A DNA stretch of 64,000 nucleotides from Alphaproteobacteria bacterium. GTDB taxonomy: Bacteria; Pseudomonadota; Alphaproteobacteria; GCA-2731375. Shown one piece after another: positions 46,089-64,000 of the stretch. A program made the translations under genes and the position numbers. The stretch is from positions 862,697 through 926,696 of the forward strand of contig CBDDDJ010000002.1 of the NCBI GenBank assembly GCA_965226475.1, in the 5' to 3' direction. The notes beneath the pieces were generated by a model. That model saw only the letters and a program-made list of their open reading frames with translations, did not search any database and was not told the DNA's origin. Positions within the stretch are counted from its first letter, which is position 1, and each line of letters opens with the position of its first letter.

Positions 46089-46499
46089 ATGACCGACAAT
46101 TTTGAAAACAAAGTTGCTGTTGATGGGCCTGTGGTAAACGAGGGCGAGCTTGGCTCGTCCACGTTTTCCCCGGGCCAGGTTTCGCCGGCAGGCCCGCTGG
46201 GACTTGGCCAGCGGTGGACGGTGACGCGCAAGCGTGAGGTTGCCCTGCGGCTTTTGCGTGGCGAGCCGGTGGAACTTTTGTCGCGGCAGTTGGGCGTGGA
46301 GATTTTCCGGCTCGAGCAGTGGCGTGAGAAGGCGATCGCCGGGATCGATGCCTCGCTCAAGGAACGCAAGGGCGATCCGGTAAAGGCGGAACTGGACATC
46401 GCCATGAAGCGGATCGGGGAGTTGATCATGCAGGTGGAACTGCTGGAGGCCAAGACGGAGACGTCCGGCCCTTTGGGGCGGCGGAGGTCGCGGCGATGA
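46089..46499 (+). CDS. IS3-family OrfA (HTH)
   Basis: RWTVTRKREVALRLLRGE...LSRQLGV; overlaps orfB by ATGA. Confidence 0.8.
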   Translation: MTDNFENKVAVDGPVVNEGELGSSTFSPGQVSPAGPLGLGQRWTVTRKREVALRLLRGEPVELLSRQLGVEIFRLEQWREKAIAGIDASLKERKGDPVKAELDIAMKRIGELIMQVELLEAKTETSGPLGRRRSRR

Positions 46500-50517: not shown

Positions 50518-50606
50518 GAGGGTGCCGGCGATCGGGCGCGTATCGAATGGAGCATGAAGCTCGGCCGCTTCGTGGCCGTCACGCCGACGAGCACCACTAT
50601 AGCAGG

Positions 50607-50635
50607 TTGACACGCCGGCACTAGGGCGATAAGTT
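50607..50635 (+). promoter_or_regulatory. Putative sigma70 promoter
   Basis: TTGACA-17 bp-TAAGTT upstream of the 61-aa ORF. Confidence 0.6.
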
Positions 50636-50707
50636 GAGGCGTTCATGGCACGGAACAACGCGGCAGGCACGGATGTAACCGTCCACCGTTAGAGAGAGAG
50701 AAAGACC

Positions 50708-50893
50708 ATGACTTACCACACCCTGAAGGCGAGGGCCGATAGGATCGGCTTGTCCCTGCGGAAGAGCGGCGACCGCTACTCCGTCACCCATGTCGACTCC
50801 GGGGGCGCGGTGCATCCGCATTGCCCCGCGACCGGTTCGCCTTTCGTCCTCACTTTGAACGAGGCTACGGAGATCGTTGTCGAGATGACGTAG
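50708..50893 (+). CDS. Small hypothetical protein
   Basis: Purine-rich RBS, own promoter, 61 aa. Confidence 0.55.
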   Translation: MTYHTLKARADRIGLSLRKSGDRYSVTHVDSGGAVHPHCPATGSPFVLTLNEATEIVVEMT

Positions 50894-50906
50894 TAGCTTT
50901 CCGGGG

Positions 50907-51197
50907 ATGAGCCGGCACCACGTTCGGCTGCACTGGCGCCGATGGTATGCGACCCGTCGAACTGTATTTCGGCGGGACGCATACCGGTGCCGCTCTTGTG
51001 GCAAGGCCGGGCGCATGGAGTGCGACCACGTCATCCCGCTGCATGTGGACCCTGCGCAAAACCCCTACGACCCGGACGGCTGTCAGGCCCTTTGTCGCGG
51101 CTGTCATGTCGAGAAAACCCGGCATGAAAACCGCCGCGAGCCTACGCCTGCCGAGGCCGCATGGCGCGAGCTGGTCGCGGAGATGGCCGGCGAGTGA
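50907..51197 (+). CDS. HNH endonuclease (packaging-associated)
   Basis: RDAYRCRSCG...ECDHVIPL...CQALCRGCHVEKT. Confidence 0.88.
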   Translation: MSRHHVRLHWRRWYATRRTVFRRDAYRCRSCGKAGRMECDHVIPLHVDPAQNPYDPDGCQALCRGCHVEKTRHENRREPTPAEAAWRELVAEMAGE

Positions 51198-51230
51198 CGA
51201 TATTGCGCCGGGCCGCGTAATACCGAGAAA

Positions 51231-51263
51231 TATCAGTGGCTTAGCCTCTAAAATTTGTTGACA
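51231..51263 (+). promoter_or_regulatory. IHF-consensus site and -35 box upstream of the capsid gene
   Basis: TATCAGTGGCTTA matches WATCARNNNNTTR; TTGACA at 51258-51263. Confidence 0.45.
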
Positions 51264-51318
51264 TCGCAGCCGGTTCTCTCCCTGATGGACATGATTTGTT
51301 CTTTCCGGGAGTGCCCAA

Positions 51319-52605
51319 ATGACCGATGCCCAACGCCGTCTCCGCGAGCTTCGCGACCGCCAGTCCAAAGAACGCGGCACAATGGCCGAGCTGAGCCGCG
51401 TCGACTCGCTCACGGATGAACAGCGCAGCGAACTCGACACCATCGAGTCTGGCGTCCCGGATTTGGAGCGCCAAATCCGGGCGGCGATGGTCGGGCTCGA
51501 GGAGGAGGAGCGCGCGGCCGAGACCAAGGAAACCGCTTCGCCGGACGCCGAAATGCGCGAGAGACTGGCGTTGCGCGGCAAGGCGCAGCTCACCAATTTC
51601 CTGCTGGCGGCGGCGCGCGGCCGCATCGTCGATGGGGCTGAGGCCGAGCTTTGCGCGGCGGCGGGCGTCCAGGGAATCCCCCTCGAACTGTGGGACCTGC
51701 CGCGCCCGGCCGAACAGCGCGACATCACCCCGGCGCCCGGAACGGTCGGAATCAATCTCGACCCGATCCGCCCCGCCGTGTTCGCCAACTCCATCGCGCC
51801 GCGTCTCGGGGTTCAAATGCCGCGCGTCATGTCCGGCACCTATGCGACGGGGACGATCACGACTTCGCAGACCGCGACTCCGCTTGCCAAGAGCGCGGCG
51901 GCGGTCGGAGCGGTTGGCGCGATCAGCGTTACCACGGCGACCCCGAAACGAATCTCGGCGCGTCTGGAATTGACGCTTGAGGATATCGCGGCGGTCGGAC
52001 AGGCCAACTTCGAGTCGATCCTCCGGGAGAACCTGTCACTCGCGCTGTCGGACGAGCTGGACGATCAAGTGATCAACGGGGACGGGGCGGCGCCGAACCT
52101 GGCGGGGATCTTCGAGCGGCTTGCCAATCCGAGCGCGCCGGGCGCGACCGTCGCGGCCTTCGACGATTTCGTTACCACCTTCGCCGGCGGGATCGACGGG
52201 CTTTGGGCGAACACGATCAAAGAGGTCGCCATCGTCGCCGGCGTCGACACCTATCGACTCAGCGCCCAAACCTTCCGGGACATCGCGACCGCCGACCTGG
52301 GCGACAAGGCTTTCGCCGACTATGCGATGCAGCACTTCGGCGGATTCTGGACCAACAAGCGGATGCCGGCCAAGGCGAGCCACGTTCAGCAAGCCATCCT
52401 GTACCGCAAGGGCCGCTCGATGATGGGCGGCTCCGGGGCGATGCGCACCGCTGTCTGTCCGCATTGGAACGAGATTTCGATTGACGATATCTATTCCGGC
52501 TCCGCGAAGGGCGAGCGATATTTCACAATGCATGTCCTGCTCGGCGACGTGATTTTGGTGCAACCGAACGCCTACGCGCAGGTGGCTTTCCGAGTCTCCA
52601 CGTAG
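51319..52605 (+). CDS. Phage major capsid protein (HK97 fold, with delta-domain-like coiled coil)
   Basis: N-terminal coiled coil; ATPKRISARLELTLE; LSDELDDQVINGDG...GIF; 428 aa. Confidence 0.82.
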   Translation: MTDAQRRLRELRDRQSKERGTMAELSRVDSLTDEQRSELDTIESGVPDLERQIRAAMVGLEEEERAAETKETASPDAEMRERLALRGKAQLTNFLLAAARGRIVDGAEAELCAAAGVQGIPLELWDLPRPAEQRDITPAPGTVGINLDPIRPAVFANSIAPRLGVQMPRVMSGTYATGTITTSQTATPLAKSAAAVGAVGAISVTTATPKRISARLELTLEDIAAVGQANFESILRENLSLALSDELDDQVINGDGAAPNLAGIFERLANPSAPGATVAAFDDFVTTFAGGIDGLWANTIKEVAIVAGVDTYRLSAQTFRDIATADLGDKAFADYAMQHFGGFWTNKRMPAKASHVQQAILYRKGRSMMGGSGAMRTAVCPHWNEISIDDIYSGSAKGERYFTMHVLLGDVILVQPNAYAQVAFRVST

Positions 52606-52614
52606 GGGCTAACC

Positions 52615-53568
52615 GTGGAATTTGAGCGCCGCCTGTCCGGGCTAGAGCTTCGAGCCGAGGGCCGGCGCCTGTCCGGCGTCGTCATGAAATACGGCGACAT
52701 TTCCCTCTCGCATCGCGAACGCTTCGAATCGGGCTCGCTCCGCATGGCCGAATCGGTTCACCTGGACCTGCATCATGACGTCGAGCGCGCCATCGCCTGG
52801 CATCCCGGCGGCGGGCTCACCCTGGCCAACGGCCGCGCCGAGCTGAAAATGACGGCCGTATTGCCGCCGATCCCTGCGGCTAATCGTGCCTTGGACGAGA
52901 TCCGCGCCGGCCGCGTCGACGGTCTGAGCGTCGAATTCCGCGCCGTGAAAGAGCGGCGCGACGGCAACTTGCGGGTGATCGAAGACGCCGAGCTTCGGGG
53001 TATAGGGCTCGTCCGCAATCCCAGCTACCAGCAATCGCACGTCGAGGCGCGGCGGCGGTCGGGCCGGACCATGCGGGCTCGGATCCCGGCCGATGAGACC
53101 GTGGCCTGCGAGTGCGCCGGCCAGGACACCAGGTGGGCGCGGGTGATCCAGCCGGCGATGGAGAAAATGTGGAAGGACTCGTTTGAGGGCGGCACCAAGG
53201 CGGTGGTCGGCGCCTATCTCGAAAACTACGGGACGCCGATTGCCAGCACGGCGCGCGGCACCCTTCGGGGGCGGATCCGCGGCGTCGACGGGTACGAGGT
53301 GGACATCGACCTTCCCGATTCGGATGCGGGCCGGTCGCTGCTGGCCGCTTGGGAGGACTCCGGCTTGGTGGTCCGGCCCTTCATCGCCGATCAAACATCG
53401 GTGGTTGTGGACGGCGTGCGCGAGATAACCGGCGGCCGACTCCGGGCGCTCATACTCACCAGCTCCGACGCTCGCGAGGGCTGGCCGGAGCCGGAGATTG
53501 TCGCCACGCCGGACGAGCTGGCGAGCGCCGACGCGCCCCGGAAGCGGAGGATTCGGTTGTGGCCGTAG
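52615..53568 (+). CDS. HK97-type prohead protease with a second degenerate protease-like domain
   Basis: ELRAEGRRLSG, RERFESGS, LDLHHD, DGLSVEF, IGLVRNPSY. Confidence 0.8.
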   Translation: MEFERRLSGLELRAEGRRLSGVVMKYGDISLSHRERFESGSLRMAESVHLDLHHDVERAIAWHPGGGLTLANGRAELKMTAVLPPIPAANRALDEIRAGRVDGLSVEFRAVKERRDGNLRVIEDAELRGIGLVRNPSYQQSHVEARRRSGRTMRARIPADETVACECAGQDTRWARVIQPAMEKMWKDSFEGGTKAVVGAYLENYGTPIASTARGTLRGRIRGVDGYEVDIDLPDSDAGRSLLAAWEDSGLVVRPFIADQTSVVVDGVREITGGRLRALILTSSDAREGWPEPEIVATPDELASADAPRKRRIRLWP

Positions 53569-53870
53569 ACCTGACCGCCGCCTCGCTCGGCTTCGCGCTC
53601 GGCGTCGACGTGGCGGACGCCACGCGGCTGCTGGCCGTGGCCACGCCAACGGTGGAACGATACGCGCCGGCCGCCCCGTCCGCAGTCCAGAATGAGGCGG
53701 TGATCCGCTTCGGCGGATGGCTGAACGAATCGCCTGCCAGCGGTGCCCGGATGGAGTCGGAGGGCGATATCTCGACTTCGTTCTCCCCCGCAATGACGGG
53801 CGGTCTGAGGGCGTCCGGGGCGATGGCGCTTCTCTCGCCTTGGAAGATCCGCCGGGCGGGTGCGATATGA
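53559..53870 (+). CDS. Putative head-tail connector (gp6/gp15-like)
   Basis: Small helical protein, RLLAVAT..VERYAP.AP..VQNEAVIR...ALLSPWK; GTG start overlaps the protease stop. Confidence 0.6.
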   Translation: MAVDLTAASLGFALGVDVADATRLLAVATPTVERYAPAAPSAVQNEAVIRFGGWLNESPASGARMESEGDISTSFSPAMTGGLRASGAMALLSPWKIRRAGAI

Positions 53871-54322
53871 GACGGCTTGCGCTTCGCCGGTTTCCCGATG
53901 CCATTGTGCGCAGGCGCCAGGGCGTCGGCGCTTTTGACGAATACGGAGAGTGGATTCAAGGGCAGATCGTGACCGTCGTGCTGCCCGCGAGCATCCAGCC
54001 TGTGAAGCTGGAGGACTCAGATTTTGCCGGCGGGGTGAGTCTGGTGGATCGTCTCAAGGTCTATGTGCCGGTCGGGATCGAGCGCGTCGTGACTCCAGGC
54101 GACACGTTGAGGTGGAACGGCGGCGTACTAACCTGGAACGGCGCCCCGCTCATGTGGGGCGGACCTATCGGCTATCGCGCTGGGGACGAGAACCCCTTGG
54201 CGGCGGCGTTCGAGGCCGCGGGCGCGGACGAGGTAGAGATCGGAACGACCCACTACAGCGTCGTTGAGTCCGAGCTTTGGCGCGGCGGGCATGTCCGCGC
54301 GATCCTGCTGAGGGAAACGTGA
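53867..54322 (+). CDS. Putative head-closure/stopper protein
   Basis: FDEYGEW, ASIQP, KVY, DEVEIGTTHYSV beta-rich pattern; ATGA overlap. Confidence 0.5.
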   Translation: MRRLALRRFPDAIVRRRQGVGAFDEYGEWIQGQIVTVVLPASIQPVKLEDSDFAGGVSLVDRLKVYVPVGIERVVTPGDTLRWNGGVLTWNGAPLMWGGPIGYRAGDENPLAAAFEAAGADEVEIGTTHYSVVESELWRGGHVRAILLRET

Positions 54323-55386
54323 TGCGCTGGCCGTGGTCGAAACCGGAGCGGCGCGAATCGGGCGGCGATTTTTCCGATGCCGTTGTCCGGCTGATCGAGG
54401 CGCAGGCGGCCGGCACGGCGGCGGATGCGTCGTCTACGGCTGCGGTCGAGGCGGCCGCCGGGGCGCTGTCGAGGGCCTTCGCGAGCGCCGAGGTACAAGG
54501 TGCGCCCTGGGTCCGGGATGCCGTCTCTCCGACCGTCCTGGGGCAAATCGGGCGCGACTTGGTTCGGTCGGGTGATTCGATGCACGTTGTCCGGGTCGGC
54601 GGCGATGGCGCCGTGCGGCTGATCCCCTGTTCGTCCTGGCACTGGGAAGGGAGTCACGATCCCGCGAGTTGGGCCGTGCGAGTGACCGCCTATGGACCGA
54701 CGACAAGCACGACATGGAACCTGCCGGCGTCGGCGGTTGTGTTCGTTGGGTGGGGATCGAACCCCGGCCAACCCTATGTCGGCGTGGCTCCGACATCATG
54801 GGCGCATGCCACGGCAAGGCTCGGGTCCGAGGTCGAGCGATCCATTGCCGATGAAGTCGGCGGGCCGCTCGCGCAATTGCTGGCGGTCCCGCAGGACGGC
54901 GGCGACGATGGCGACGATGATCCGCTCGCGGCGCTGAAAGCGGACATCGCGGGCGCCCGCGGCCGGGCGATGTTGGTCGAGACCACGGCCGCGGGATGGG
55001 GCGAGGGCAAGACCGCCGCGCCGCAAGCCGACTGGCGGCAACAGCGACTCGGGCCGGCCCCGCCCGAAGTGATGGCGCGGCTCCGATGCGATGCCTTCGC
55101 GCATGTCTTGGCCGCTTGCGGGGCGCCGCCGTCGATGTTCGTCGACAACGCGGACGGGACGGCGCAGCGCGAGGCCGTGCGCCGCTGGCATCTGAATACC
55201 GTCTTGCCGATGGCGCGCATGGTCGAGCATGAGCTGACGCGAAAGCTCGAAACGCCGGTGCGGCTGAAATTCGATTCCTACGCGATGGACATGGTGAGCC
55301 GGGCAACCGTGGTCGCGAAGCTCACCGGGGCCGGGGTGGCGCCGGGCGTCGCGCTGGCGGCGGTGGGATTGGCGGATGACGAATGA
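54322..55386 (+). CDS. Phage portal protein (short, 354 aa)
   Basis: TAAVEAAAGALSRAFAS, RDLVRSGD, YVGVAP, AACGAPPSMF, VLPMARMVEHELTRKL. Confidence 0.8.
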   Translation: MRWPWSKPERRESGGDFSDAVVRLIEAQAAGTAADASSTAAVEAAAGALSRAFASAEVQGAPWVRDAVSPTVLGQIGRDLVRSGDSMHVVRVGGDGAVRLIPCSSWHWEGSHDPASWAVRVTAYGPTTSTTWNLPASAVVFVGWGSNPGQPYVGVAPTSWAHATARLGSEVERSIADEVGGPLAQLLAVPQDGGDDGDDDPLAALKADIAGARGRAMLVETTAAGWGEGKTAAPQADWRQQRLGPAPPEVMARLRCDAFAHVLAACGAPPSMFVDNADGTAQREAVRRWHLNTVLPMARMVEHELTRKLETPVRLKFDSYAMDMVSRATVVAKLTGAGVAPGVALAAVGLADDE

Positions 55387-55509: not shown

Positions 55510-55586
55510 TGGCGACCCCGGCAGGACTCGAACCTGCGACCTGTGGATTAGAAGTCCACTGCTCTATCCAGCTGAGCTACGGGGCC
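55510..55586 (-). tRNA. tRNA-Arg (TCT)
   Basis: GGCCCCGTAGCTCAGCTGGATAGAGCAGTGGACTTCTAATCCAC...GTTCGAGTCCTGCCGGGGTCGCCA. Confidence 0.96.
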
Positions 55587-56361: not shown

Positions 56362-57522
56362 ATGAACAGGATCAACCTAGCTATGTCGGCCATCGCCTTG
56401 CTGGCGTCCTTGGCCATCCCCTCGAGCGGAGCGCTGGCGCAGGCCACGGACGTGCAATGCGCCCAATGCGTCGGCACGACGGATATCGCCCTCCAGGCCA
56501 TCACCAACGGCCGGCTGAGAAACAACGCGGTGAACACGGCCAAGATCACCGACGGCGCCGTCACCGCGAGCAAGCTCGCCCCCGGCGCGGTGACCAACAG
56601 CCGGATCGCGCTCGGCGCGGTGCGGGAAGGCCGGATCGCGAACAAGGCCGTCACGACGCCCAAGATCGCGCTCGGCGCGGTGGTGGAGGGCCGCCTGGCC
56701 AACGGCGCCGTCGTGACGAACAAAATCCGGGACGGGGCGGTGACGACGGCGAAAATCGCGGCCGGCGCGGTGACCAACGGCAGGCTCGCCGCCCGCGCGG
56801 TCGGATCCGGCAAGATCCTGGACCGCGCCATCGCCACCGCCGACATCGCCGACGGCGCGGTGACCTCGGCCAAGATCGCCGACGGGACGATCGCCAACGC
56901 CGACATCGCCGCCGACGCCGTGACCTCGGGAACTATCTTCGACGGCACGATCGTAAACGCCGACATCGCCGACGCCACCATCACGGCCGCCAAGCTGGCG
57001 TTCACTTCCTCGACGGAAGTGTACGTCATGAAGGACAGCCAAGGGGACGTGTTCGGCGAGGTCATCGATTTCGGCTCTGCGAATAGCTGGCTGGTGCTTG
57101 CCGATATCGGCGGGACGAATTTCGAACTGGGCGTAATATTCGCGACGAACGGCGCGGGAACCGCCGACGACGCCTATTATTTCAATCGTGGCAGCACTAA
57201 GACGCTTCATTTTGCGCTAGCAGGCTGCGCGGGCACGGCATATTTCCAAACGACCAAGAATGTCGGAATCGAATTGTTCGGCTTCTTCACGAGGCCGATA
57301 TTGCTTGGCCCCCAGACGGGTAGTGGTACGGACCAACGCATCATGTACAAGCCAACGAACCAGACGGAGGTTACCCTGAATATCGCCTCGACGATGACAA
57401 GTAATACGACCTGCACGACGCCTGGAGGAACCGTATCGACAGCCAACCTGATCCCGATGGAAATCGTGGACAGCAATCTGCAAACGACTTTTCCGGGCCC
57501 GTTTACGATCGCGATGCAATAG
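56362..57522 (+). CDS. Secreted protein with ~18 x 10-aa GAVTxxKIAD-type repeats and a distinct C-terminal domain
   Basis: Signal peptide ending GALA-Q; repeats at ~56464-57003. Confidence 0.8.
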   Translation: MNRINLAMSAIALLASLAIPSSGALAQATDVQCAQCVGTTDIALQAITNGRLRNNAVNTAKITDGAVTASKLAPGAVTNSRIALGAVREGRIANKAVTTPKIALGAVVEGRLANGAVVTNKIRDGAVTTAKIAAGAVTNGRLAARAVGSGKILDRAIATADIADGAVTSAKIADGTIANADIAADAVTSGTIFDGTIVNADIADATITAAKLAFTSSTEVYVMKDSQGDVFGEVIDFGSANSWLVLADIGGTNFELGVIFATNGAGTADDAYYFNRGSTKTLHFALAGCAGTAYFQTTKNVGIELFGFFTRPILLGPQTGSGTDQRIMYKPTNQTEVTLNIASTMTSNTTCTTPGGTVSTANLIPMEIVDSNLQTTFPGPFTIAMQ

Positions 57523-57679: not shown

Positions 57680-57862
57680 TCACTTCTTCTTCCCGCGCCG
57701 CGCCCACTCCCGAAGCGTCAGGCAAAGTCGGAGCCAGACCAGGGCGCAGCCGCCTATCGCCGCGAACAGCGTGAAGAGGCTCGTGGCCTGGCCGGCGATG
57801 TCCGCCAGATAGAACCAAACCGCGCCGATACCGATCGGCACGTCGACGATGCTCGGCTTCAA
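57680..57862 (-). CDS. Small membrane protein, holin-like
   Basis: TTG start overlapping the upstream TGA; hydrophobic segments and basic tail RRGKKK; end of the phage-like operon. Confidence 0.5.
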   Translation of the reverse strand: MKPSIVDVPIGIGAVWFYLADIAGQATSLFTLFAAIGGCALVWLRLCLTLREWARRGKKK

Positions 57863-58107
57863 CTCGGCTCCCCCCTCTTCGCTTCGATCGTCTCCCAGTT
57901 CTCGCCGCTGGCGGCCATGCAGGTTGTGCCGCCCGGATTCGTCACCAGGATCGACCAGCCGCCATCGGGCGCCACGAACAGCTCGACCATGTTTCCGTTG
58001 TCGTGCATGCCGATCGCGGTTCGGCCCTCCTGGTGCTGCGTTCTCAGCCCGGCGATGAACATCTCGCGCGGCTGGCATTGCATCCAAGCTAGGGCCGGAA
58101 ATGAAAA

Positions 58108-59132
58108 GGCTCTATTATTGAATCATATGCGTCACCTTGTTATGGCGGCGGCGGGGCAGGCTCGGTCATTGGCGCCGGGGGCGAGGCCGACGAGGTGGAA
58201 CCAGCTCAGGTAGTTGTCCAGATAGCGGGTGGCGATGCCGCGGCGGGGACGCAGGAAGTCCTTCAACCGGCTGTGGCGGCTGTTCACCGTCTGCACATGC
58301 AGATCGCCCCGAACCCGTTCCCCCATCGAGCGGTTGAGTGCTTCGTGGCTCACCCCGAGCGCGGCGGCGCAAGGTGGATAGCTCGCGCCACCGTCGGAGA
58401 CCAGCAGGGCGTCCTTCGCGACCACCGGGTCGAGAGCAGCCGTGAGCGCCGCCGCGTCGACCCTGGGCAGCACCGCGCTCACCGTCGTCCCGCTCCGGTC
58501 CGCCGCCATGAGAACCGGCACCTGCTCGCGCGAGAGGCCGCGCTTCTTCGCCTTGCCGCCCCGCCGCCGTGCCTTGCGTCCCAGCCCGCGCGCGCCCTTC
58601 CGGCTCTCCAGGACGTAGGTCTCGTCCGCTTCCACGATCCCCTTGAGCACCTCCGAATCGCTCCGCGCCGCCGCCAGAAACCGGTGACGCCAGCGGAACG
58701 CCGTGCTCACCGCCACGTCGCAGCGCGCCGCCGAGGCCTTCACCGTCTCCCCCTCCGCCAGCGACGCCCCGAACGACAGCCAGCGTTCCTTGTGGTGCAG
58801 GCCCGACAGCGGCGTACCGGTCAGCGCGTTGAAGGTCCTGCCGCAGCCCTTGCACTGGTAGCGCCGCAGACCCCGCGCCATACCGCGCGAAACCGCCCCT
58901 TCGCTCGCGCAGTGCGGACAGCGCCGGGCCTCGTCCACACCAAGCTCGATCGCGGCCTTCGATGCCTCGCCTTCGCTCCGGCCCGACAGCACCGCGAGCG
59001 CCTCGTGCCGCTGCACGCGCGTCAGCCCGCGCGCCGCCGAAAGCCACACCTGGAAACCCTTGCCGTCCATGACCCAACCCCCTGCCGTTCCTCGCATTCT
59101 ACCGCAAATGCATACAATTCAAGAATTGAGCC
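58108..59132 (-). mobile_element. IS1595-family element type A, copy 2 (1025 bp)
   Basis: IRs GGCTC(T/A)ATT(A/C)TTGAAT..TATGC; 8-bp TSD AATGAAAA at 58100-58107 and 59133-59140. Confidence 0.95.
58132..59070 (-). CDS. IS1595-family transposase (type A)
   Basis: Protein identical to 28048-28986 except two C-terminal residues. Confidence 0.92.
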   Translation of the reverse strand: MDGKGFQVWLSAARGLTRVQRHEALAVLSGRSEGEASKAAIELGVDEARRCPHCASEGAVSRGMARGLRRYQCKGCGRTFNALTGTPLSGLHHKERWLSFGASLAEGETVKASAARCDVAVSTAFRWRHRFLAAARSDSEVLKGIVEADETYVLESRKGARGLGRKARRRGGKAKKRGLSREQVPVLMAADRSGTTVSAVLPRVDAAALTAALDPVVAKDALLVSDGGASYPPCAAALGVSHEALNRSMGERVRGDLHVQTVNSRHSRLKDFLRPRRGIATRYLDNYLSWFHLVGLAPGANDRACPAAAITR

Positions 59133-59629
59133 AATGAAAAGACCGCCACGAGGGCGGCCATCGGGAAGGCCCTGTACCCGGGGCGACGCCGAAAGGGGAG
59201 CATGATCGTTTCCTCGCGGATGCCGGTCCAGGTCAGGCCGTCGGCGTTTGCAGCGCGCGTCTGACGGCGGCCAGATCCTCCGCCGTATCGACACCGCGCA
59301 CCATCTCGGGCACAAGTCCGACGCCTATCCTCATGCCGGATTCGAGGGCGCGTAGTTGTTCCAGGGATTCGGCCCTTTCCAACCGACCGCGTGGCAGCTC
59401 GCAAAACCGCGCCAGCGCCGCGCGGCGGTAGGCGTAGATCCCCATGTGGGGATGGCCCTCCGCGATCGGGGCACGCGTGAAATAAAGCGCGTTCCCCTCG
59501 GCGTCGACGGCCACCCTGGGGGAGTCCGCGCCACCCGAAGCGCCGACGGGCGCGGCAAGGGTCGCGATATCGGAGTCTCCCTTCAGGGCCTCGATGGCCC
59601 GCCACACGTAAGCGGGAGGAATCGTCGGA

Positions 59630-60862
59630 AGGGCTTATCCCTTTGAGCCCGGTTTGACGAGATGTTGAGTTTCTGGTGGGCGTCGGCAGCATGTTCGTGT
59701 AATGTTCCGTCATGGCCAGCCGCTGGAAATATGACCGCCCCATGTCCCGCGCCGCCTTCGAGGCGCGCTTTCCCGATGAAGCCTCCTGTGCCCGGCATCT
59801 CGCCGCCAGGCGCTGGCCCGACGGCTTCGTCTGCCCCGCCTGCGGCCATGACAGGGGCTGGGAACTGAAGCGGCGCCGGGCGAGCTGGGAATGTGCGGCC
59901 TGCGGGAAGGAGACCTCGGTGACCGCAGGCACGATCATGCACCGCAGCCACTTGCCCCTGAAGACCTGGTTCATGGCCGTTCACATCGTGACCAGCCACT
60001 CGAATGGTATCTCCGCCCTGCAACTCCAGGCCCAGCTCGGGCTCGGCAGTTACAAGAGTGCCTGGCTCCTGCTGCACAAGCTGCGCCGTGCCATGGTCAA
60101 TCCGGATCGCAGCCTGCTTGAGGACCTGATCGAGATCGATGAGGCCACCCTCCCGTTCCGCACCGCAAAAGACCCGGCCACAGGCGGGCAAGGTCGCAGC
60201 CCACAAGGCAAGATGCGCATTGCCGGCGCGGTCGAGCTATCGCCCGAGGGCGAGCCACGCCGCATCCGGCTGGCGCCGATCGGGGATTTCTCCGCGCGCA
60301 GCCTTCGTGCCTTCGTTGCCGGAACCTCGGCGCCGGGCGCGCGGGTGATTACCGATGGCTGGAGCGGTTATTGCGGCCTGCCCGACCACGACCACCAGCC
60401 CAAGGTCGTCGGTGCAACGCCCGCCCATCTCGTGCTGACGTGGATCCATCGTGTGTTCTCGAACCTGAAGCGCTGGGCGCTCGGAACCTTCCATGGCCTG
60501 CGCCGCGCCCATCTGCGCCGCTACCTCGACGAGTTCGTGTTCCGCTGGAACCGCCGCCGCCACACCGCAACGGCTTTCGATACCCTGCTCGGCATCGGCA
60601 CGCGCCTGCGACCCGCCGACTACCGCGACATCGTCGGACAACACGTCTGATCCCGGCAGGCCGGGCGCCAGCCATCGCCCGCCCTCCGATCCGCCTCAAT
60701 CGGAGCCGAATACCGGCCCTCCAGTCTGCCTGACAGCACTCGAAACCAACTTCCTCAAGTCCAAAAGCTCCCGCACATCCCCCGGCACGGTCCGAAAACC
60801 GTGCCTGGAACGTAGAAGGCCGATCAACATCTGGTGTGACCGGAAGCAAAGGGATAAGCCAT
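59630..60862 (+). mobile_element. IS1595-family element type B, copy 2 (1233 bp)
   Basis: Ends AGGGCTTATCCCTTTG and CAAAGGGATAAGCCAT; 8-bp TSD TCGTCGGA at 59622-59629 and 60863-60870. Confidence 0.95.
59712..60650 (+). CDS. IS1595-family transposase (type B)
   Basis: Same protein as 47694-48632. Confidence 0.93.
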   Translation: MASRWKYDRPMSRAAFEARFPDEASCARHLAARRWPDGFVCPACGHDRGWELKRRRASWECAACGKETSVTAGTIMHRSHLPLKTWFMAVHIVTSHSNGISALQLQAQLGLGSYKSAWLLLHKLRRAMVNPDRSLLEDLIEIDEATLPFRTAKDPATGGQGRSPQGKMRIAGAVELSPEGEPRRIRLAPIGDFSARSLRAFVAGTSAPGARVITDGWSGYCGLPDHDHQPKVVGATPAHLVLTWIHRVFSNLKRWALGTFHGLRRAHLRRYLDEFVFRWNRRRHTATAFDTLLGIGTRLRPADYRDIVGQHV

Positions 60863-61173
60863 TCGTCGGAATATCGCCCTGGCAATTGACGACAATGTCG
60901 TATTCGCCATTGGCATCCACGAGGTCGACCGCTTCGCGCACCCGGTCGGTGCCCGATGCATGGTCGCTCGAGGTGCCGACGCAATCGCCACCTCCGGCAC
61001 GGATGGTATCGGCGATCTCCGCATCGTCCGTCGCCACGTAGACTGGCCCGACGTCGGCCTCGACGCAGCGGCGCCATACGTGGACCACCATCGCCTCCCC
61101 GGCGATTTCGGCGAGCATCTTGTCGGGGAGCCGGGTCGAGGCCCGCCTGGCCGGGATGACGATCGCGATATTG

Positions 61174-61527
61174 TCAGCCATCTCGCGCCGCCCCCGGCTC
61201 GACTCTCTCGGCCCCGTGCATCCGCTCGCCGAGCGCGATGTAGGCCGGCATGACGACGGCAAGCTTGAAAGCATCGAAAGACGCCCGGACCCGCTCCCAT
61301 TCGCCGTCTTCGAGCAGGACCGCGTCCTCGGCCGACTCGATCTTGTCGATCAGCGCCAGCCGTTCCTTCATCTCCTTGAAATCCAGGCCATTGACGGGAT
61401 CGGAACCGAGGATGCGATCGGCCAGCCATTCGACCGGGTCCATTACCCGCTCCGCTCCGCCGGAATCCCTGACCGGCTCGCCGTCCCGCTCCCGCATCGG
61501 GATCGGGCGAAGGTCGATTTTTCGCAT
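61174..61527 (-). CDS. Hypothetical phage-like protein
   Basis: AAGGGAG-type RBS; overlaps the kdsB start by 8 nt; acidic and helical. Confidence 0.65.
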   Translation of the reverse strand: MRKIDLRPIPMRERDGEPVRDSGGAERVMDPVEWLADRILGSDPVNGLDFKEMKERLALIDKIESAEDAVLLEDGEWERVRASFDAFKLAVVMPAYIALGERMHGAERVEPGAARDG

Positions 61528-61538
61528 GCCTTTCTCCC

Positions 61539-61823
61539 TTAACTCAAGTCGATCGCGGCGACGGCGTCGGCCGCCGCTTCGCCGGCCGCGCGCCGCTCCG
61601 CCTGCAGCGTGATGGCCTTGGCCTGATCGAATATCCCCGCCGACCAGCGGGCGAAGACCTCGCCGTCCGTCATCGCCCGCTCGGCCGGCGGACTCCCATC
61701 CCTGATCGTGCCGTAATGGGCGCGAAGCGCGTCGGCGAACCTCACCAGATGCGCGGCGGGGACGTTGCGCGAGTGACTCAGAAGCGGCGAGCCGGCATCG
61801 ATTTCGATTCTCATCGCGGCCAT
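61539..61823 (-). CDS. Hypothetical phage-like protein (position typical of tail-fibre accessory proteins)
   Basis: AAGGAGG RBS; directly downstream of the fibre-like gene. Confidence 0.65.
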   Translation of the reverse strand: MAAMRIEIDAGSPLLSHSRNVPAAHLVRFADALRAHYGTIRDGSPPAERAMTDGEVFARWSAGIFDQAKAITLQAERRAAGEAAADAVAAIDLS

Positions 61824-61852
61824 GGATCGGCCTCCTTCTTTCGTGTCCGTCC

Positions 61853-63511
61853 CTAATTCAAAAGCCCGACGTGGCCCATGCCTGCATCGTCGAGCCGCGC
61901 CCGGTACTTCGCCAGCAGGGCTGGCCTCTCTTCCCCCAGCAGGTCCACGAGGATCCGGTGTTGCGCCGATTGCTGGACCGCCGCGCCCGTGAGCGCGCGC
62001 TGCAGTTGGGCGACGTTCGTCATCCCGCCCTCGGAAACGGGCCCGCCCAGGATGCCGGCCGCGATCAGCTCGCCCTCGTTATAACGGGTGAAGCCGGCGA
62101 ACCCGGAGCGGATGCGGTCGTAGGACGAGATCAGCGCGCCGTCGTCCCAGGCGTCGAACGTCCCCCCCGCCGTCACCGACCACATGTCGCCGTCCTCGTC
62201 GATCAGGAAACGGGCGACATTGGCCGCCCCCACGAGCGCCCGCACGGCGAACACGTTCCCGTCGGCCGTGATGTCGGCGTTGCCGTTCGCCCCGTCGTGC
62301 TCGGCGGCATAAACCTCGACGAGGGCGCGCGCCGACGTGGTCTTGTTGGTGTCCGCCGTCCCGCCGTGGGCGCGAAACGACAGAATATTGGGTGCCGCGC
62401 CATCCTCGGCGAGGGCCTGGAGAAACACGCCGCCTTGCGCCCCGCTCGCCTTGCCTATCGTCATAAAATCGTCGGTCTCGACATCGATCGCCGGCGACGT
62501 GGTCAGCCCCGTCGCGACGTCGCTCGATTTGAAGGCCAATATCTGATCGTCGGCCGCGCCCATATTTATGGTCAAGCCCGACGTCATGTTGGCGTTGGCG
62601 GTCTCGTTGACGAAAAGAACCGGCGCGGAACCAAGCGTGAAGCGGAAACGCTCCGCCCCGCTGTTTTCAATCGCGAGCCGAGGCGCGCCGCTGTTGTAAT
62701 TCCACGCCAGTGTGCCGAAGTCGCTGTCCGCCGGGCCGCCCGCGACCCAACGGTGCACGTTGGCGTCCGGCGCCAAGGTCGAGAACCCGACGTCGGCGGC
62801 GGCTTCGACCACCAGGTCCGAAGCGGACGCCAGCGCCGCCACCGCCCCGGCGGTGCATGTGTGAACATGCAGCGTGCCGTCGCCGCCGCCGGCCGTCAGC
62901 GCGCCGGACGGATCGATAACCATATTACCCGCCAGCATCCCGACGTTCCGCGAAGCGTCGATCCGCATGGCCTCGGCGGCGCCCGTGGAGAACCCGAGTT
63001 CGTTCGTGTCCGCGCGGAACATGCCCGTGTCTTTGTCCCCGGCGAACGTGATCGAGGGCGCCGCCGCCGAGCCGAAATCGAAACAGGCGGACGCGATTCC
63101 CATGCCGGCGTATGCGGAATAGACGTTGCCACTCGGGTCGATCGAAAGCTCTACCTTTGCGCCGGCGGGGATATCGACGACGGCCATGGAGGGCGACCCG
63201 GCGTTCGCCTCGATCCCGATGGCGAAGCCGCCCGACGTATTGTTCCACACCAGCTTTTTCGTCTCGGCATTCGGGACTGTAATCACCGCCGCGCCCGTCA
63301 GCGTGCCGTCGATTTCGATCGTGCGCGCCCGATGCCACACCGAATCCCCGTCCGCGTCCAGGTCGGCCGTGAAGTCGTGATCGGCGCTGATCGTCTCTAT
63401 GTGATAGCCGTTCAGGCCTTCGTCCAGATCGTCGAACGCCGCGTTGATCGGGACCTCGGGGTTGCCGTTCAACTCGAAATGCGCAACGCCGGAATGGGGT
63501 GTGTCAACCAT
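61853..63511 (-). CDS. Phage tail-fibre-like protein
   Basis: N-terminus TPHSG...EVPINAAFDDLD; GSAAAPSITFAGDKDTGMFR..NELGFSTG...MRID motif common in fibres; G/A/T/D-rich beta body; helical C-terminus. Confidence 0.7.
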   Translation of the reverse strand: MVDTPHSGVAHFELNGNPEVPINAAFDDLDEGLNGYHIETISADHDFTADLDADGDSVWHRARTIEIDGTLTGAAVITVPNAETKKLVWNNTSGGFAIGIEANAGSPSMAVVDIPAGAKVELSIDPSGNVYSAYAGMGIASACFDFGSAAAPSITFAGDKDTGMFRADTNELGFSTGAAEAMRIDASRNVGMLAGNMVIDPSGALTAGGGDGTLHVHTCTAGAVAALASASDLVVEAAADVGFSTLAPDANVHRWVAGGPADSDFGTLAWNYNSGAPRLAIENSGAERFRFTLGSAPVLFVNETANANMTSGLTINMGAADDQILAFKSSDVATGLTTSPAIDVETDDFMTIGKASGAQGGVFLQALAEDGAAPNILSFRAHGGTADTNKTTSARALVEVYAAEHDGANGNADITADGNVFAVRALVGAANVARFLIDEDGDMWSVTAGGTFDAWDDGALISSYDRIRSGFAGFTRYNEGELIAAGILGGPVSEGGMTNVAQLQRALTGAAVQQSAQHRILVDLLGEERPALLAKYRARLDDAGMGHVGLLN

Positions 63512-63516
63512 GCTCT

Positions 63517-64000
63517 CTACCTGTGTAAGGCCGCGTCGATATCCAAAAGCTCGGCCAGGAGCGCGTGCAGATCGGCGAGACGCACCATGTTCGGTCCGTC
63601 CGACGGGGCGTTATCGGGATCGTCATGAACTTCCATGAAAAGGCCGGCTACCCCGACGGCCACGGCCGCGCGCGCAAGTACCGGCACGAGCTCCCGGCTA
63701 CCGCCGGTGGTGGCGCCGCCAGGCCGCTGTAGCGAGTGCGTCGCATCGAACACGACGGGGTCGAAGTCGGCCATGAGCACCAGCGAGCGCATGTCGACGA
63801 TCATGTCGCCGTAGCCGTGGGCCGTTCCCCGCTCGGTGAGAATGACATTCACGGCACCCGCCCACCGCGCCTTCTCGGCCGCGTGCGCCATGCTTTCGGG
63901 TGCCAGCCACTGGCCTTTCTTGATGTTCACCGTTCGGCCGCTCCTCGCGGCGGCGACGATCAAATCGGTCTGCCGGCACAGAAAGGCCGGGATCTGTAGG
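63517..64000 (-). CDS. kdsA: KDO-8-phosphate synthase homologue (5' part beyond the window)
   Basis: [41 protein letters not shown]. Confidence 0.92.

Follow-up and report, generated by a model that had tools for sequence, protein, structure and literature searches.

Putative virus-encoded routes to CMP-KDO, consisting of an isomerase, a synthase and a cytidylyltransferase, have been described for CroV and Fadolivirus, eukaryote-infecting giant viruses rather than tailed phages, in which, according to the available part of the source, the genes lie outside a structural operon, on an island of 38 kb that is devoted to carbohydrate metabolism and came from bacteria (PMC9614988). In a contig of a giant-virus MAG from IMG/VR (L142), kdsA, kdsB and a SIS gene are adjacent. 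Among tailed phages, the Synechococcus cyanomyovirus S-SCSM2R, a 244-kb lytic T4-like phage of an LPS-bearing host, encodes a cassette (ORF261-265) comprising, in that order, a glycosyltransferase of ‘family 24’, two hypothetical proteins, KdsB and KdsA; according to the accessible text of its description, no cyanophage had been reported to carry kdsA and kdsB before, and these and similar genes are proposed to modify the host surface (PMC12801897). A different use of sugars is documented for the mycobacteriophages Che8, Corndog and Myrna, which encode glycosyltransferases that glycosylate their own structural proteins (PMC12363180, citing Freeman et al. 2023); these phages draw on the nucleotide sugars of their actinobacterial hosts, and the available portion of that source describes neither a ulosonic acid nor a phage-encoded sugar-activation pathway.

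The locus examined here resembles S-SCSM2R in that genes for KdsA (43% identity), KdsB and a glycosyltransferase-like homologue occur together in a tailed-phage context. It differs in carrying, in addition, a SIS gene, whereas no kdsD-like gene is reported in the accessible text on S-SCSM2R, and in gene arrangement, the cyanophage kds genes being grouped, as far as that text goes, close to photosynthesis genes in a region of auxiliary genes rather than scattered among capsid, tail and fibre genes. In its tail-tip gene families it matches the gene transfer agent of Rhodobacter capsulatus (RcGTA), with which it shares the GTA-gp10 chaperone, DUF2460 (g12), phiJL001 Gp84_N/BR0599 (g13) and Phage-tail_3 plus Rcc01698_C (g15), as well as the lack of integration and replication genes. 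Compared with RcGTA, the fibres of which use capsular polysaccharide as receptor according to the part of the source available (PMC10218006), the present cluster is about twice as long, encodes its fibre and sugar genes internally and is not inherited within the bacterial family.

kds genes interleaved with virion genes

The kds locus, situated at the end of the window (the whole 64,000-nt stretch of DNA analysed), is probably the distal end of a head-tail gene cluster of phage origin, ~32 kb long. Beyond the window end, the minus strand carries a complete head-tail set, encoding the small and large terminase subunits, portal, protease, capsid, connectors and tail-tip proteins; the head is of the HK97 type and the tail tip of the RcGTA/phiJL001 type. 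An earlier note on this DNA had assigned the kds genes to a phage-like structural operon rather than to the housekeeping gene set and had suggested reading past position 64,000; the virion genes found there, upstream and on the same strand, bear it out, as does the lack of a kds set of the host genus itself, and a SIS gene resembling kdsD lies in the same cluster, as does a glycosyltransferase-like cassette.

The entire cluster has a single orientation and is closely packed at its kds end. The stop of the g15-like large tail gene overlaps the kdsA start by 4 nt; the fibre-like gene begins 5 nt past the kdsA stop, as claimed from the first inspection; gaps of 29 and 11 nt precede the two small ORFs recognized at the same time; and the 8-nt overlap read at the entry to kdsB is real, the kdsB start at 61181 falling inside the end of the 117-aa ORF (Table 1). 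Spread over ~25 kb, kdsA, kdsB and the SIS gene occupy three separate places among the virion genes, and the GC3 of the kds genes (0.80-0.92) is the same as that of the neighbouring genes. The nearest relative of the capsid protein is encoded by a Rhizobium phage (58%), and the capsid gene was found in none of the 32 other genomes of the family, indicating that the cluster is not ancestral. Searches of both flanks found no integrase, repressor or replication genes. The order of the tail genes is non-canonical, with a tube-like gene downstream of a TMP-like gene and the cassette, and the portal ORF has no counterpart of the first ~85 positions of its profile.

Past kdsB, the sole terminator-like hairpin on the minus strand lies 74 nt from the kdsB stop; given that the whole region contains 8 such sites compared to 11.5 expected in shuffled sequence, that is, no enrichment, this hairpin is weak evidence of an operon end. 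The same kind of scan yielded 1 promoter-like site, with 1.7 expected.

Table 1. Features at the kds end of the cluster (window coordinates)
Feature	Position	Strand	Basis and remarks
kdsA (KDO-8-P synthase), part within the window	63517..64000	-	PF00793, E 1.3e-33
552-aa tail-fibre-like protein	61853..63511	-	phrog_28766 ‘tail fiber protein’, E 2.4e-7, residues 142-187
94-aa ORF	61539..61823	-	GC3 0.84-0.85
117-aa ORF	61174..61527	-	GC3 0.81
kdsB, N-terminal part	60872..61181	-	PF02348 positions 1-100, E 7.4e-25; NF003948 4-107, E 3.4e-38
IS-B, IS1595 family, inside kdsB	59631..60871	+	Pfam; transposase 59712-60650
kdsB, C-terminal part	59233..59630	-	PF02348 positions 113-217; NF003948 119-245, E 3.9e-31
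Terminator-like hairpin and T run	59141..59159	-	Consensus scan, L153 2838-2856; candidate operon end
IS-A, IS1595 family	58100..59132	-	Pfam DDE_Tnp_IS1595, HTH_23, Zn_ribbon_IS1595; transposase 58132-59097
74-aa ORF	57859..58083	-	Phage family phrog_25396, E 6.5e-18, profile positions 34-101 of 111
Small ORF, ~53-60 codons	57680..57862	-	GC3 0.87; RRGKKK tail; two hydrophobic stretches

The KDO genes and the tail genes around them

The complete kdsA gene extends to window-equivalent position 64323 (G000:C2:926213-927019) and encodes 268 aa that exceed the cut-offs of both NCBIfam KdsA equivalogs, NF003543 (372.5 bits, cut-off 242) and TIGR01362 (351.8 bits, cut-off 314). The protein is of the alphaproteobacterial type, with 54-64% identity. 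Two peculiarities picked out in the earlier note held up in an alignment of 62 KdsA sequences: the KKGQW motif is present only in the cluster copy and a relative with 78% identity, with KKGQF in 58 sequences, and the shortened loop after DATHS, 21 residues long, is found in 5 sequences, compared to 23 residues in 55. In a maximum likelihood tree, the cluster KdsA falls outside the clade of the family, and the AU test does not reject its placement inside (p 0.141). A second, diverged lineage encodes KdsA and SIS-only proteins with 78% and 66% amino acid identity, respectively, both full-length and each on a contig of 1,026,305 bp.

In the source genome, kdsB is split by an IS1595-family element, as first noticed from the sequence. 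This element (IS-B; 1241 bp) lies between two copies of the 9-bp direct repeat TCGTCGGAA and has ~40 copies in the genome (41 blastn rows, including the query itself); in silico removal of IS-B together with one repeat copy restores a single 235-aa KdsB frame, and both parts match the KdsB equivalog NF003948. The claim that this KdsB lacks an NxVKVV segment agrees in part with an 8-residue gap at that place relative to the KdsB of a family member, G004 (51% identity). The third KDO-pathway gene, located directly after the capsid gene, encodes a SIS-only arabinose-5-phosphate isomerase homologue. For all three genes (kdsA, kdsB and kdsD-type), the cluster copies are the only ones in the genome: tblastn detected one kdsA and one kdsB, the only PF00793 match is kdsA, and the KdsB and KpsF family searches agree.

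Among the tail genes lies a GT8-like glycosyltransferase cassette that is common to phiCbK-like phages and S-SCSM2R. The GT8-like protein of this cassette, 242 aa long, is a homologue of S-SCSM2R ORF261 (43% identity, E 5e-39). It has no match in Pfam, and its assignment to GT8 is based on the names given by depositors, on a D-x-D motif that is conserved and on PDB hits that do not reach significance. The donors of GT8-type enzymes are normally UDP-sugars rather than CMP-KDO. In the Caulobacter phiCbK-like phage C2 (Bertelyvirus), four homologous genes, gp163-gp166, including the glycosyltransferase-like one, are collinear with the cassette and belong to the tail module, directly following a giant g15-like tail protein; they are annotated simply as ‘hypothetical protein’. 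Unlike the cluster, C2 is a 300-kb lytic phage without kds genes, being absent from the kdsA matches.

In the 552-aa fibre-like protein, the N-terminal part varies, while a C-terminal domain of ~250 aa (residues ~290-540) is conserved and recurs in 128 IMG/VR stretches and 17 MAG loci; Peptidase_S74 is present in 3 of 53 among the fibre homologues listed. Neither a Pfam match nor a PDB relative was found for the protein. None of the 97 other loci with this domain carries kdsA or kdsB nearby, so this fibre family as a whole is not linked to kds genes. The 94-aa and 117-aa ORFs that separate the fibre gene from kdsB have no match in Pfam, PHROG or NCBIfam.

A host lineage without detected lipid A genes

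The host bacterium has apparently lost the lipopolysaccharide genes of its own. LpxA, LpxB, LpxC and LpxK were not detected in any of the three genomes of the genus, including the source assembly (96.4% complete); host-own full-length KdsB and KdsD are likewise missing from all three, and kdsA, kdsB and kdsD are absent from both sister species (98% and 96% complete). The family relatives G004 and G009 possess the full set (KdsA, KdsB, KdsD, LpxA, LpxB, LpxC and LpxK). The search for separate housekeeping kdsA and kdsB genes suggested by the earlier note thus came back empty, and the cluster copies are the sole ones because the host genus has none, not because they form a host-essential set. 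Since searches of the host revealed no lipid A pathway, an LPS core that could be remodelled is missing, and the proposed role of the cluster in remodelling the host LPS receptor is unlikely. All three genus genomes nevertheless carry a WaaA-like PF04413 gene, in the source genome the single GT30 match and a host gene on contig C5; the host therefore possesses the fold of a KDO transferase but no obvious donor for it. The cluster itself yielded no KDO transferase, the KpsS/KpsC family has no match in any of 5 genomes, and KdsC was found neither here nor in the LPS-bearing relatives.

Integrity of the cluster across samples

Three IS insertions and a frameshift in the source genome disrupt kdsB, the g15-like large tail gene and the 74-aa gene, so that this copy cannot function. 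The fibre-kdsA stretch is carried by 20 runs from 9 studies, and bridging contigs from three other studies are ~99.6-99.9% identical in the region and free of IS elements (IS-B is absent from those of runs X3, X7 and X8, and IS-A from that of X8), which implies that these samples have an intact kdsB and an intact large tail gene. Removal of the insertions restores, besides the KdsB frame, a tail protein of 1385 aa.

Possible role of the CMP-KDO module

The identities, order and uniqueness of these genes, their absence from the host lineage and their intactness in other samples are established. We consider it probable that they belong to a phage-derived particle cluster that has a CMP-KDO and glycan module of its own, expressed late. 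The SIS-only isomerase homologue would convert Ru5P to A5P, which KdsA would combine with PEP to give KDO-8-P; the phosphatase step would be supplied by the host cell, and KdsB would turn KDO and CTP into CMP-KDO, a metabolite for whose synthesis the host genus has no detected genes. Close packing and shared orientation suggest that the sugar genes are co-transcribed with the virion genes, in which case CMP-KDO would be present only during particle building. This arrangement suggests that the particle, or the cell producing it, receives a KDO-containing glycan. Our preferred mechanism, put forward tentatively, is attachment of this glycan to a component of the particle, for example the fibre, the capsid or the tail.

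The chief alternative is an altered surface of the producer cell, whereby the orphan GT30 (WaaA-like) enzyme of the host, or the cassette enzymes, would place a KDO-glycan on the envelope of the carrier, masking or creating a receptor, excluding superinfection or preventing re-adsorption of particles to debris. We regard this as rather unlikely, despite the surface modification proposed for the cyanophage genes (PMC12801897, as far as available), the capsular target of RcGTA fibres (PMC10218006, likewise) and the retention of the WaaA-like gene in a genus without detectable lipid A genes. The two sister species, although devoid of kds genes, have the WaaA-like gene as well, so its function is independent of the element, and lipid A, which usually serves as acceptor, should be missing. 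Furthermore, with the three kds genes scattered in a late-type operon of overlapping or nearly abutting frames, expression in non-producing cells would require several internal promoters, and promoter-like sites do not exceed expectation.

It is improbable that the cluster is a decaying prophage remnant, with the kds genes as functionless passengers from a former LPS-bearing host. The disruptions in the source genome, the odd tail gene order and the lack of detectable integrase, repressor and replication genes at the flanks would fit such decay, but the full frames on IS-free contigs of three other studies, the full length of the three kds genes, fibre, capsid and terminase, the full-length proteins retained in the second lineage and kds GC3 values at the level of the neighbours all speak against it. 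Finally, that these are the essential KDO genes of the bacterium itself, adjoining phage debris, is close to refuted: even though they are the sole kdsA and kdsB of the assembly, with a KdsA of alphaproteobacterial type that the AU test leaves compatible with the family clade, an IS interrupts kdsB, the Lpx enzymes for an acceptor were not found, sister species do without kdsA, kdsB and kdsD, and the genes sit at three places among virion genes of a cluster that is absent from all 32 other genomes of the family.

Downstream of kdsB

A second IS, missing from the earlier account, lies past the hairpin (IS-A, with the 9-bp direct repeat AATGAAAAG) and cuts off the 5’ side of the 74-aa gene, the frame of which, without IS-A, extends open for 61 codons upstream. 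The description of its product as a small exported protein does not stand, as there is no hydrophobic N-terminus even when the frame is read across IS-A. The adjacent 135-aa ‘holin-like’ ORF can be retained in part: its upstream portion runs out of frame over the 74-aa gene (GC3 0.49), whereas the last ~60 codons, with no family match in Pfam or PHROG, are coding-like, with a basic tail and two hydrophobic stretches (hydropathy windows >1.5 at residues 6 and 27-34).

Gene order and parts of the cluster

We read the 50 kb of DNA that follow the window, calling genes by third-position GC, and family matches over this stretch show that the minus-strand gene run containing kdsA and kdsB goes on unbroken beyond the window. 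The virion genes that an earlier note on this DNA, made from the sequence alone, had expected upstream are there on the same strand, as a terminase-to-tail cluster of ~32 kb (hereafter the element). Read 5' to 3', the element starts with the small terminase, large terminase, portal, S78 protease, HK97-type capsid and a 148-aa phage protein, followed by a 199-aa SIS-domain protein, a Gp77-like adaptor, a head-tail connector and the head completion and tail completion proteins. Next come a GTA-gp10-type chaperone, a 314-aa TMP-like ORF, a ~6.2-kb cassette and a 242-aa glycosyltransferase-like protein, and then a Phage_tail_2 tube-like protein, DUF2460, a phiJL001-Gp84 hub, BR0599, two small ORFs and a g15-like host-specificity protein. 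The distal end consists of kdsA, the fibre gene, a 94-aa ORF, a 117-aa ORF, kdsB and a terminator-like hairpin. The two ORFs between the fibre gene and kdsB lie on the minus strand as well, and the first 8 nt of kdsB overlap the 117-aa ORF. The hairpin, 74 nt past the kdsB stop, is weak, as shuffled sequence has such sites at least as often.

Coordinates of the features of the element. C2 is the contig that holds the window (C2:862697-926696), and subtracting 862696 from a C2 position gives its window equivalent; L121 is a locus of C2 DNA beyond the window.
Feature	Coordinates	Strand	Remarks
kdsA, C-terminal 160 residues	window 63517-63999	-	ORF list and family scans
kdsA, whole	C2:926213-927019	-	
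Fibre ORF, 552 aa	window 61853-63511	-	5 nt past kdsA stop
g15-like piece, 113 aa	C2:927016-927357	-	
g15-like piece, 699 aa	C2:927354-929453	-	Phage-tail_3 and Rcc01698_C; phrog_4271 positions 751-1282
IS3-type element	C2 about 929477-930904		rve transposase on +
g15-like piece, 590 aa	C2:930828-932600	-	phrog_4271 positions 1-215
141-aa protein	C2:932604-933029	-	phrog_329
94-aa ORF beyond the window	C2:933013-933297	-	
BR0599	C2:933287-933652	-	
Hub	C2:933668-934360	-	
DUF2460	C2:934357-934974	-	
Tube-like protein	C2:935068-935484	-	
GT8-like 242-aa protein	C2:935471-936199	-	
Cassette	C2:936195-942442	-	includes 292-aa ORF
SDR-like fragment (cassette)	C2:937054-937540	-	
FAD-oxidoreductase-like ORF (cassette)	C2:937608-938850	-	
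Two gp165-like ORFs (cassette)	C2:938579-939400 and 939433-940452	-	
gp164-like ORF (cassette)	C2:940238-941083	-	
gp163-like ORF (cassette)	C2:941439-942040	-	
TMP-like ORF	C2:942752-943696	-	
Chaperone	C2:943941-944342	-	
Tail completion protein	C2:944403-944819	-	
Head completion protein	C2:945418-945744	-	
Connector	C2:945741-946394	-	
Gp77-like adaptor	C2:946391-946690	-	
SIS-only isomerase homologue	C2:946739-947338	-	
148-aa protein	C2:947426-947872	-	
Capsid	C2:947890-949038	-	
Protease	C2:949022-949921	-	
Portal	C2:949961-950854	-	= L121:13962-14855
Large terminase	C2:951249-952580	-	
Small terminase	C2:952498-953259	-	

In the genome under study, the g15-like gene is in three pieces, parted by a 1-nt frameshift and an IS3-type element. 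The portal ORF meets its Pfam profile from position 86 only and is separated from the terminase by a 395-nt gap, which may reflect a frameshift or a mis-called start. The tail genes (C2:935068-943696) are in a non-canonical order: the Phage_tail_2 tube-like gene, normally found ahead of the chaperone, comes only after the glycan cassette, which itself follows the chaperone and the TMP-like ORF; between the tail-completion and chaperone genes there is no tube gene. Two small ORFs near the distal end had been read as a small exported protein and as holin-like. The former is a 74-aa ORF (phrog_25396) that carries no export signal and is truncated by a second IS1595-type insertion (window 58100-59132). 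In the latter, of 135 aa, nothing but the final ~60 codons looks coding, and it is this part that has two hydrophobic stretches.

Predicted enzymes of the KDO pathway

KdsA scores above the NCBIfam equivalog cut-offs (NF003543, 372.5 bits versus 242; TIGR01362, 351.8 versus 314), with the profile covered over its full length (positions 14-271 of 273). The departures from housekeeping-type sequence pointed out earlier are real: KKGQW is found in 2 of 62 aligned sequences, 58 of which have KKGQF, and 5 of the 62 have a DATHS-adjoining loop that is shorter by two residues. The element's KdsA keeps the GPC (metal-type Cys) motif, as do the eight most frequent column patterns, which between them account for 47 of the 62 sequences. 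The protein is predicted to be a KDO-8-P synthase, condensing A5P and PEP to KDO-8-P.

The kdsB gene is in two parts, matching positions 4-107 (131.3 bits) and 119-245 (108.1 bits) of NF003948, each half falling under the 281-bit cut-off, which is set for the whole protein (NF003948/TIGR00466). It is split by a 1241-bp IS1595-family element flanked by a 9-bp direct repeat, and removing this element and one repeat copy restores a single 235-aa KdsB frame with 51% identity to the KdsB of G004, an LPS-bearing relative from the same family.

The 199-aa SIS protein matches PF01380 (E 3.5e-18) and positions 3-151 of TIGR00393 (E 1.4e-30). It has no CBS pair and reaches 106.8 bits against the TIGR00393 cut-off of 203.7, and for these two reasons we do not file it as a canonical member of the KdsD/KpsF/GutQ group. 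SIS-only isomerases exist, and the relatives of this protein are one SIS-only protein at 66% identity, followed by full-length named arabinose-5-phosphate isomerases at 40-51%; further SIS-only proteins of 195-216 aa are among its database matches. Taken against the pathway steps summarised in PMC9614988, three of the four dedicated steps to CMP-KDO are encoded by the element as predicted enzymes. The fourth, the KdsC phosphatase, was found in none of the five genomes searched, and because these include the two LPS-bearing relatives, its absence says little.

A host lineage apparently without KDO and lipid A synthesis

In the genome under study, PF00793 is matched once, tblastn finds a single kdsA and a single kdsB, and the KpsF family has one SIS match; each of these lies in the cluster. 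The suspicion that these kds genes are not housekeeping copies is supported: they are the sole copies in the genome, but the genus apparently has no pathway of its own. KdsA is absent from both sister species of the genus (98% and 96% complete), and none of the three genus genomes has LpxA, LpxB, LpxC or LpxK, or a full-length KdsB or KdsD, over cut-off. All of these proteins are present in the LPS-bearing family relatives G004 and G009, in both of which waaA adjoins lpxK. A WaaA-like GT30 gene is retained in all three genus genomes, the copy in the genome under study lying at C5:64458-64982. Across the family, 29 of the 32 other genomes have a KdsA match, and in 26 of them it is full-length (E<=1e-60) with 54-59% identity to the element KdsA; no match came from the two sister species or from a genome of 78% completeness. 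As order and family comprise the same 33 genomes, the order-wide search is the family search. Judged from gene content, this genus, inside an LPS-bearing alphaproteobacterial family, apparently lacks both lipid A and KDO biosynthesis. Remodelling of the host LPS, which the earlier note had entertained, is accordingly unlikely.

Intact copies in other samples

The fibre-kdsA stretch occurs in 20 public sequencing runs from 9 studies, with no RNA run among those listed. The runs bear seven coded organism labels plus one 'sponge metagenome', with contig depths of 3.5-9 in the runs aligned, and the carrier fits a low-abundance associate of several hosts. Contigs of four runs were aligned over 20 kb of the cluster. 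A contig of run X3 joins across the kdsB insertion site, a 19.6-kb contig of X7 lacks both the kdsB insertion and the IS3 element, and those of X8 lack all three insertion sequences; the long contig pieces listed for these three runs are each 0-35 letters off the reference. Read as in the contigs from other runs, the g15-like gene is one 1385-aa frame, the stop of which overlaps the kdsA start. The element is strain- or species-specific but maintained, and it is intact in other samples.

The nearest KdsA among the matches listed, 78% identical, and the 66% SIS-only protein are each found on a 1,026,305-bp contig, presumably the same contig of a second lineage. As to the insertion sequences themselves, the IS1595-family element in kdsB (window 59631-60871) has ~40 near-identical copies spread over all five contigs of the genome (41 blastn rows including its own), and another IS3-type copy lies at window 46496-47407.

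The fibre

The 552-aa protein is predicted to be a phage tail fibre by sequence relation and gene position: it matches phrog_28766 (E 2.4e-7) over a short stretch, and its gene follows the g15-like gene and kdsA. The neighbours of its homologue P0028, a database relative, are 100% viral in the Atlas, which we treat as a lead only. No PDB relative was recovered by sequence or by a 50-sequence profile, and there was no match in the phage record collection. The C-terminal domain of ~250 aa (residues ~290-540; window 61890-62640) recurs in 128 IMG/VR stretches and 17 MAG loci, and kdsA or kdsB at E<=1e-3 was near it in none of 97 loci (17 MAG, 80 IMG/VR). This domain, with the consensus ...ANANMTxGLTINQGANDDQILAFKSSDV...VDEDGD..., is an unnamed but widespread caudoviral module, joined to varied N-termini and with Peptidase_S74 alongside in a few proteins; the MAG loci come from Chloroflexota, CPR and others.

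A glycosyltransferase-like protein and its cassette

The 242-aa ORF belongs to phrog_28018 (E 5e-49), with 19 matches in phage records at 38-43% identity, four of which depositors had named 'glycosyltransferase family 24 protein', 'nucleotide-diphospho-sugar transferase', 'galT-like protein' and 'putative glycosyltransferase'. A D-x-D motif (D95, D97) is invariant in all five aligned sequences. There is no Pfam family match, and the two best PDB profile matches, both GT8 enzymes, are non-significant (E 0.12 and 0.28); a PDB match to a designed repeat protein was discarded as spurious. That this protein is a glycosyltransferase is plausible from these relations, not proven. GT8-type enzymes are expected to use UDP-sugars, and no GT30 or KpsS/KpsC family match was found within the element.

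In S-SCSM2R, a cyanophage with kdsA and kdsB, the homologue of the 242-aa protein is ORF261, in the run ORF261, ORF262, ORF263, KdsB, KdsA; in Pelagibacter phage Mosig and a podovirus it lies among methyl-, sulfo-, acyl- and glycosyltransferases. The cassette is collinear with gp163-gp166 of Caulobacter phage C2 (tblastn E 4e-33, 5e-31, 6e-18 and 3e-30). In phage C2 (L237, 4661-7795), these genes are an unannotated four-gene block directly past the giant tail protein, with a GT8-like D-x-D member, and homologues are also present in CcrColossus and CcrPW. This points to a glycan-related role, so far overlooked, for the tail modules of phiCbK-like phages. Weak Pfam matches of the cassette to MptE-like/Maf (E 4e-4) and DUF6716 (E 6e-3), considered as candidate users of KDO, had no PDB support and were dropped. 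At position 18110 of L153, a locus of C2 DNA (C2:937109), where the SDR-like frame meets the 292-aa ORF, 8 letters are missing from the contigs of X3, X7 and X8, and the two may be one gene elsewhere; the X8 contig also lacks 1 letter inside the 292-aa ORF (L153 17660; C2:936659).

Origin and type of the element

Among the 120 KdsA matches listed, all but the 78% relative are at most 64% identical to the element protein. A first, quick tree with 62 rows drew on 25 of these 120 matches, 12 relatives' loci and 23 of 26 viral loci, 3 viral loci with matches under 200 aa having been left out; in it, the element KdsA and the 78% relative group with 8 viral rows (SH-aLRT 98). A more careful tree had 56 rows, after removal of 4 duplicates and of 2 rows that were long or compositionally odd. 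The maximum-likelihood trees place the element KdsA and the 78% relative on a long branch outside the family clade, but in an AU test on the 56-row tree, grouping them with the 10 KdsA sequences of the family was not rejected (p 0.141, lnL difference 32.2). Because joining the family is not rejected, we do not claim a viral or foreign origin for this KdsA. Among the virion proteins, the capsid has its best phage relative in Rhizobium phage RHph_X2_25 (58%), the structural module of which is without sugar genes, and the g15-like protein is nearest to phiJL001 and phiCbK-type tail proteins (28-31%).

In the ORFs scanned on either flank, including ~4.6 kb right of the small terminase that are only partly annotated, no integrase, repressor or replication genes were found. 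The right flank has an IS fragment, a ParA-like gene and ordinary metabolic genes; the left flank has a repeat protein, tRNA-Pro and tRNA-Arg, which are 1.5-2 kb from the cluster end, and a second, unrelated phage head remnant. The DUF3326 gene of the right flank is absent from both sister genomes, and for this reason no empty site can be defined.

The integrase, immunity and replication modules expected of a temperate prophage were thus not found in the flanking ORFs. There is also a resemblance to RcGTA: read from genes alone, the cluster has its tail-tip families and lacks a lysogeny module, being a head-tail cluster with g2-g15 homologues and no integrase, replication or lysogeny genes found. 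Vertical inheritance, however, fails, given that the capsid has no match in any of the 32 other family genomes, the two of the same genus included, and we therefore do not file the cluster as a member of the RcGTA family. It may behave as a GTA, as a defective prophage or as an inducible phage.

The second head remnant (window 49021-55386, plus strand) comprises a large terminase, HNH, a 428-aa capsid-like ORF, a protease-like ORF and a weak portal match, and is separated by 124 nt from tRNA-Arg (55510-55586), whose 3' end faces it; the capsid of the cluster does not match that of this remnant. Between the cluster end and tRNA-Pro, a gene at window 56362-57522 (plus strand) codes for a protein of 386 aa that starts with a signal-like segment, contains many short 'GAVT..KI.DGAVT' repeats and has no family match; contigs from other runs break inside this gene.

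Possible uses of the sugar

Altogether, a phage-derived particle cluster carries the only CMP-KDO genes in an organism of a pathway-less lineage, and it is intact elsewhere. The main proposal of the earlier note, a phage-borne, non-housekeeping KDO activation module in a virion operon, is upheld and extended by these results. The sugar genes would be made together with the virion proteins, as suggested by their orientation, their overlapping or near-abutting frames and the lack of internal terminator or promoter signals beyond chance. The SIS protein would then convert Ru5P to A5P, KdsA would condense A5P with PEP, a cellular phosphatase would dephosphorylate the product and KdsB would activate the resulting KDO with CTP, such that the steps to CMP-KDO would take place only during particle assembly.

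The most likely use, which we put forward tentatively, is a KDO-containing glycan placed on a particle protein. Phage-encoded virion glycosylation has a precedent in mycobacteriophages (PMC12363180), and the cassette forms part of the tail module in the element, as it does in phiCbK-like phages. The main rival, a change to the envelope of the producer cell, perhaps via the orphan GT30, appears rather unlikely to us, even as it fits proposals made for cyanophage surface genes (PMC12801897) and the polysaccharide receptors of RcGTA (PMC10218006). The weak point of both the particle-glycan and the envelope reading is that the element yielded no match to the families of CMP-KDO-dependent transferases searched for (GT30, KpsS/KpsC).

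Quite improbable, in our estimate, is a further reading, a domesticated GTA-like system whose particles recognise a glycan made by the system itself. Here, only carriers of the cluster would synthesise KDO, the host lineage having lost the pathway. A KDO-containing surface glycan would be the target of the fibre, the gene of which lies between kdsA and kdsB, and the particles would deliver DNA to kin carriers only. If true, this would be a self-marking, 'greenbeard'-type link, with the pathway for receptor synthesis and the receptor-binding protein in one operon.

As the host apparently makes neither KDO nor lipid A, the element would be the only source of the missing sugar, and any KDO in the organism or on particles would be attributable to it. 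This allows a clean test for an ulosonic acid as a decoration of tailed-phage particles or of the cells that produce them.

Comparison with known systems

Both kdsA and kdsB are already known from a few large lytic phages and giant viruses. S-SCSM2R is, according to its authors, the first cyanophage with both genes (PMC12801897), and a putative KDO pathway has been described in CroV and Fadolivirus (PMC9614988). Among GenBank phage records, 14 matched a kdsA search and 4 of these were KdsA-like, at about 42-47% identity. IMG/VR yielded 26 kdsA stretches, only one of which, a giant-virus MAG contig, also had kdsB and SIS; other proteins of the element were shared by none of the 26. Two IMG/VR loci that we inspected are T4-like (gp32, RNase H, PhoH, RNR), with kdsA among replication genes.

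Sugar genes carried by phages are commonly taken to be auxiliary functions with which large lytic phages adjust the surface of their host, whereas here a small temperate- or GTA-type head-tail operon has its CMP-KDO genes split between capsid, tail-tip and fibre genes. Our literature and sequence searches, which were non-exhaustive, returned no other case of kds genes interleaved in a small head-tail operon, of a SIS-only isomerase beside a capsid gene, or of viral kds genes in a host without its own pathway. Both the architecture and the host background are unusual among virus-encoded sugar-nucleotide pathways and virion- or surface-glycan modules. The analysis also exposes an apparently lipid A-less genus and a glycosyltransferase-like cassette that recurs in phiCbK-like tail modules and beside cyanophage kdsA/kdsB.

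A metagenome scan gave no KdsA nearer than 58% identity among the 80 loci kept, 17-18 of which have kdsB and 19 SIS; kdsB or SIS beside kdsA in these loci looks like ordinary bacterial clustering. One 23.5-kb metagenome contig (L228) is phage-like: in it, kdsB adjoins kdsA, and a large terminase (PDB TerL, E 2e-9) and a portal-like gene lie ~6-9 kb downstream.
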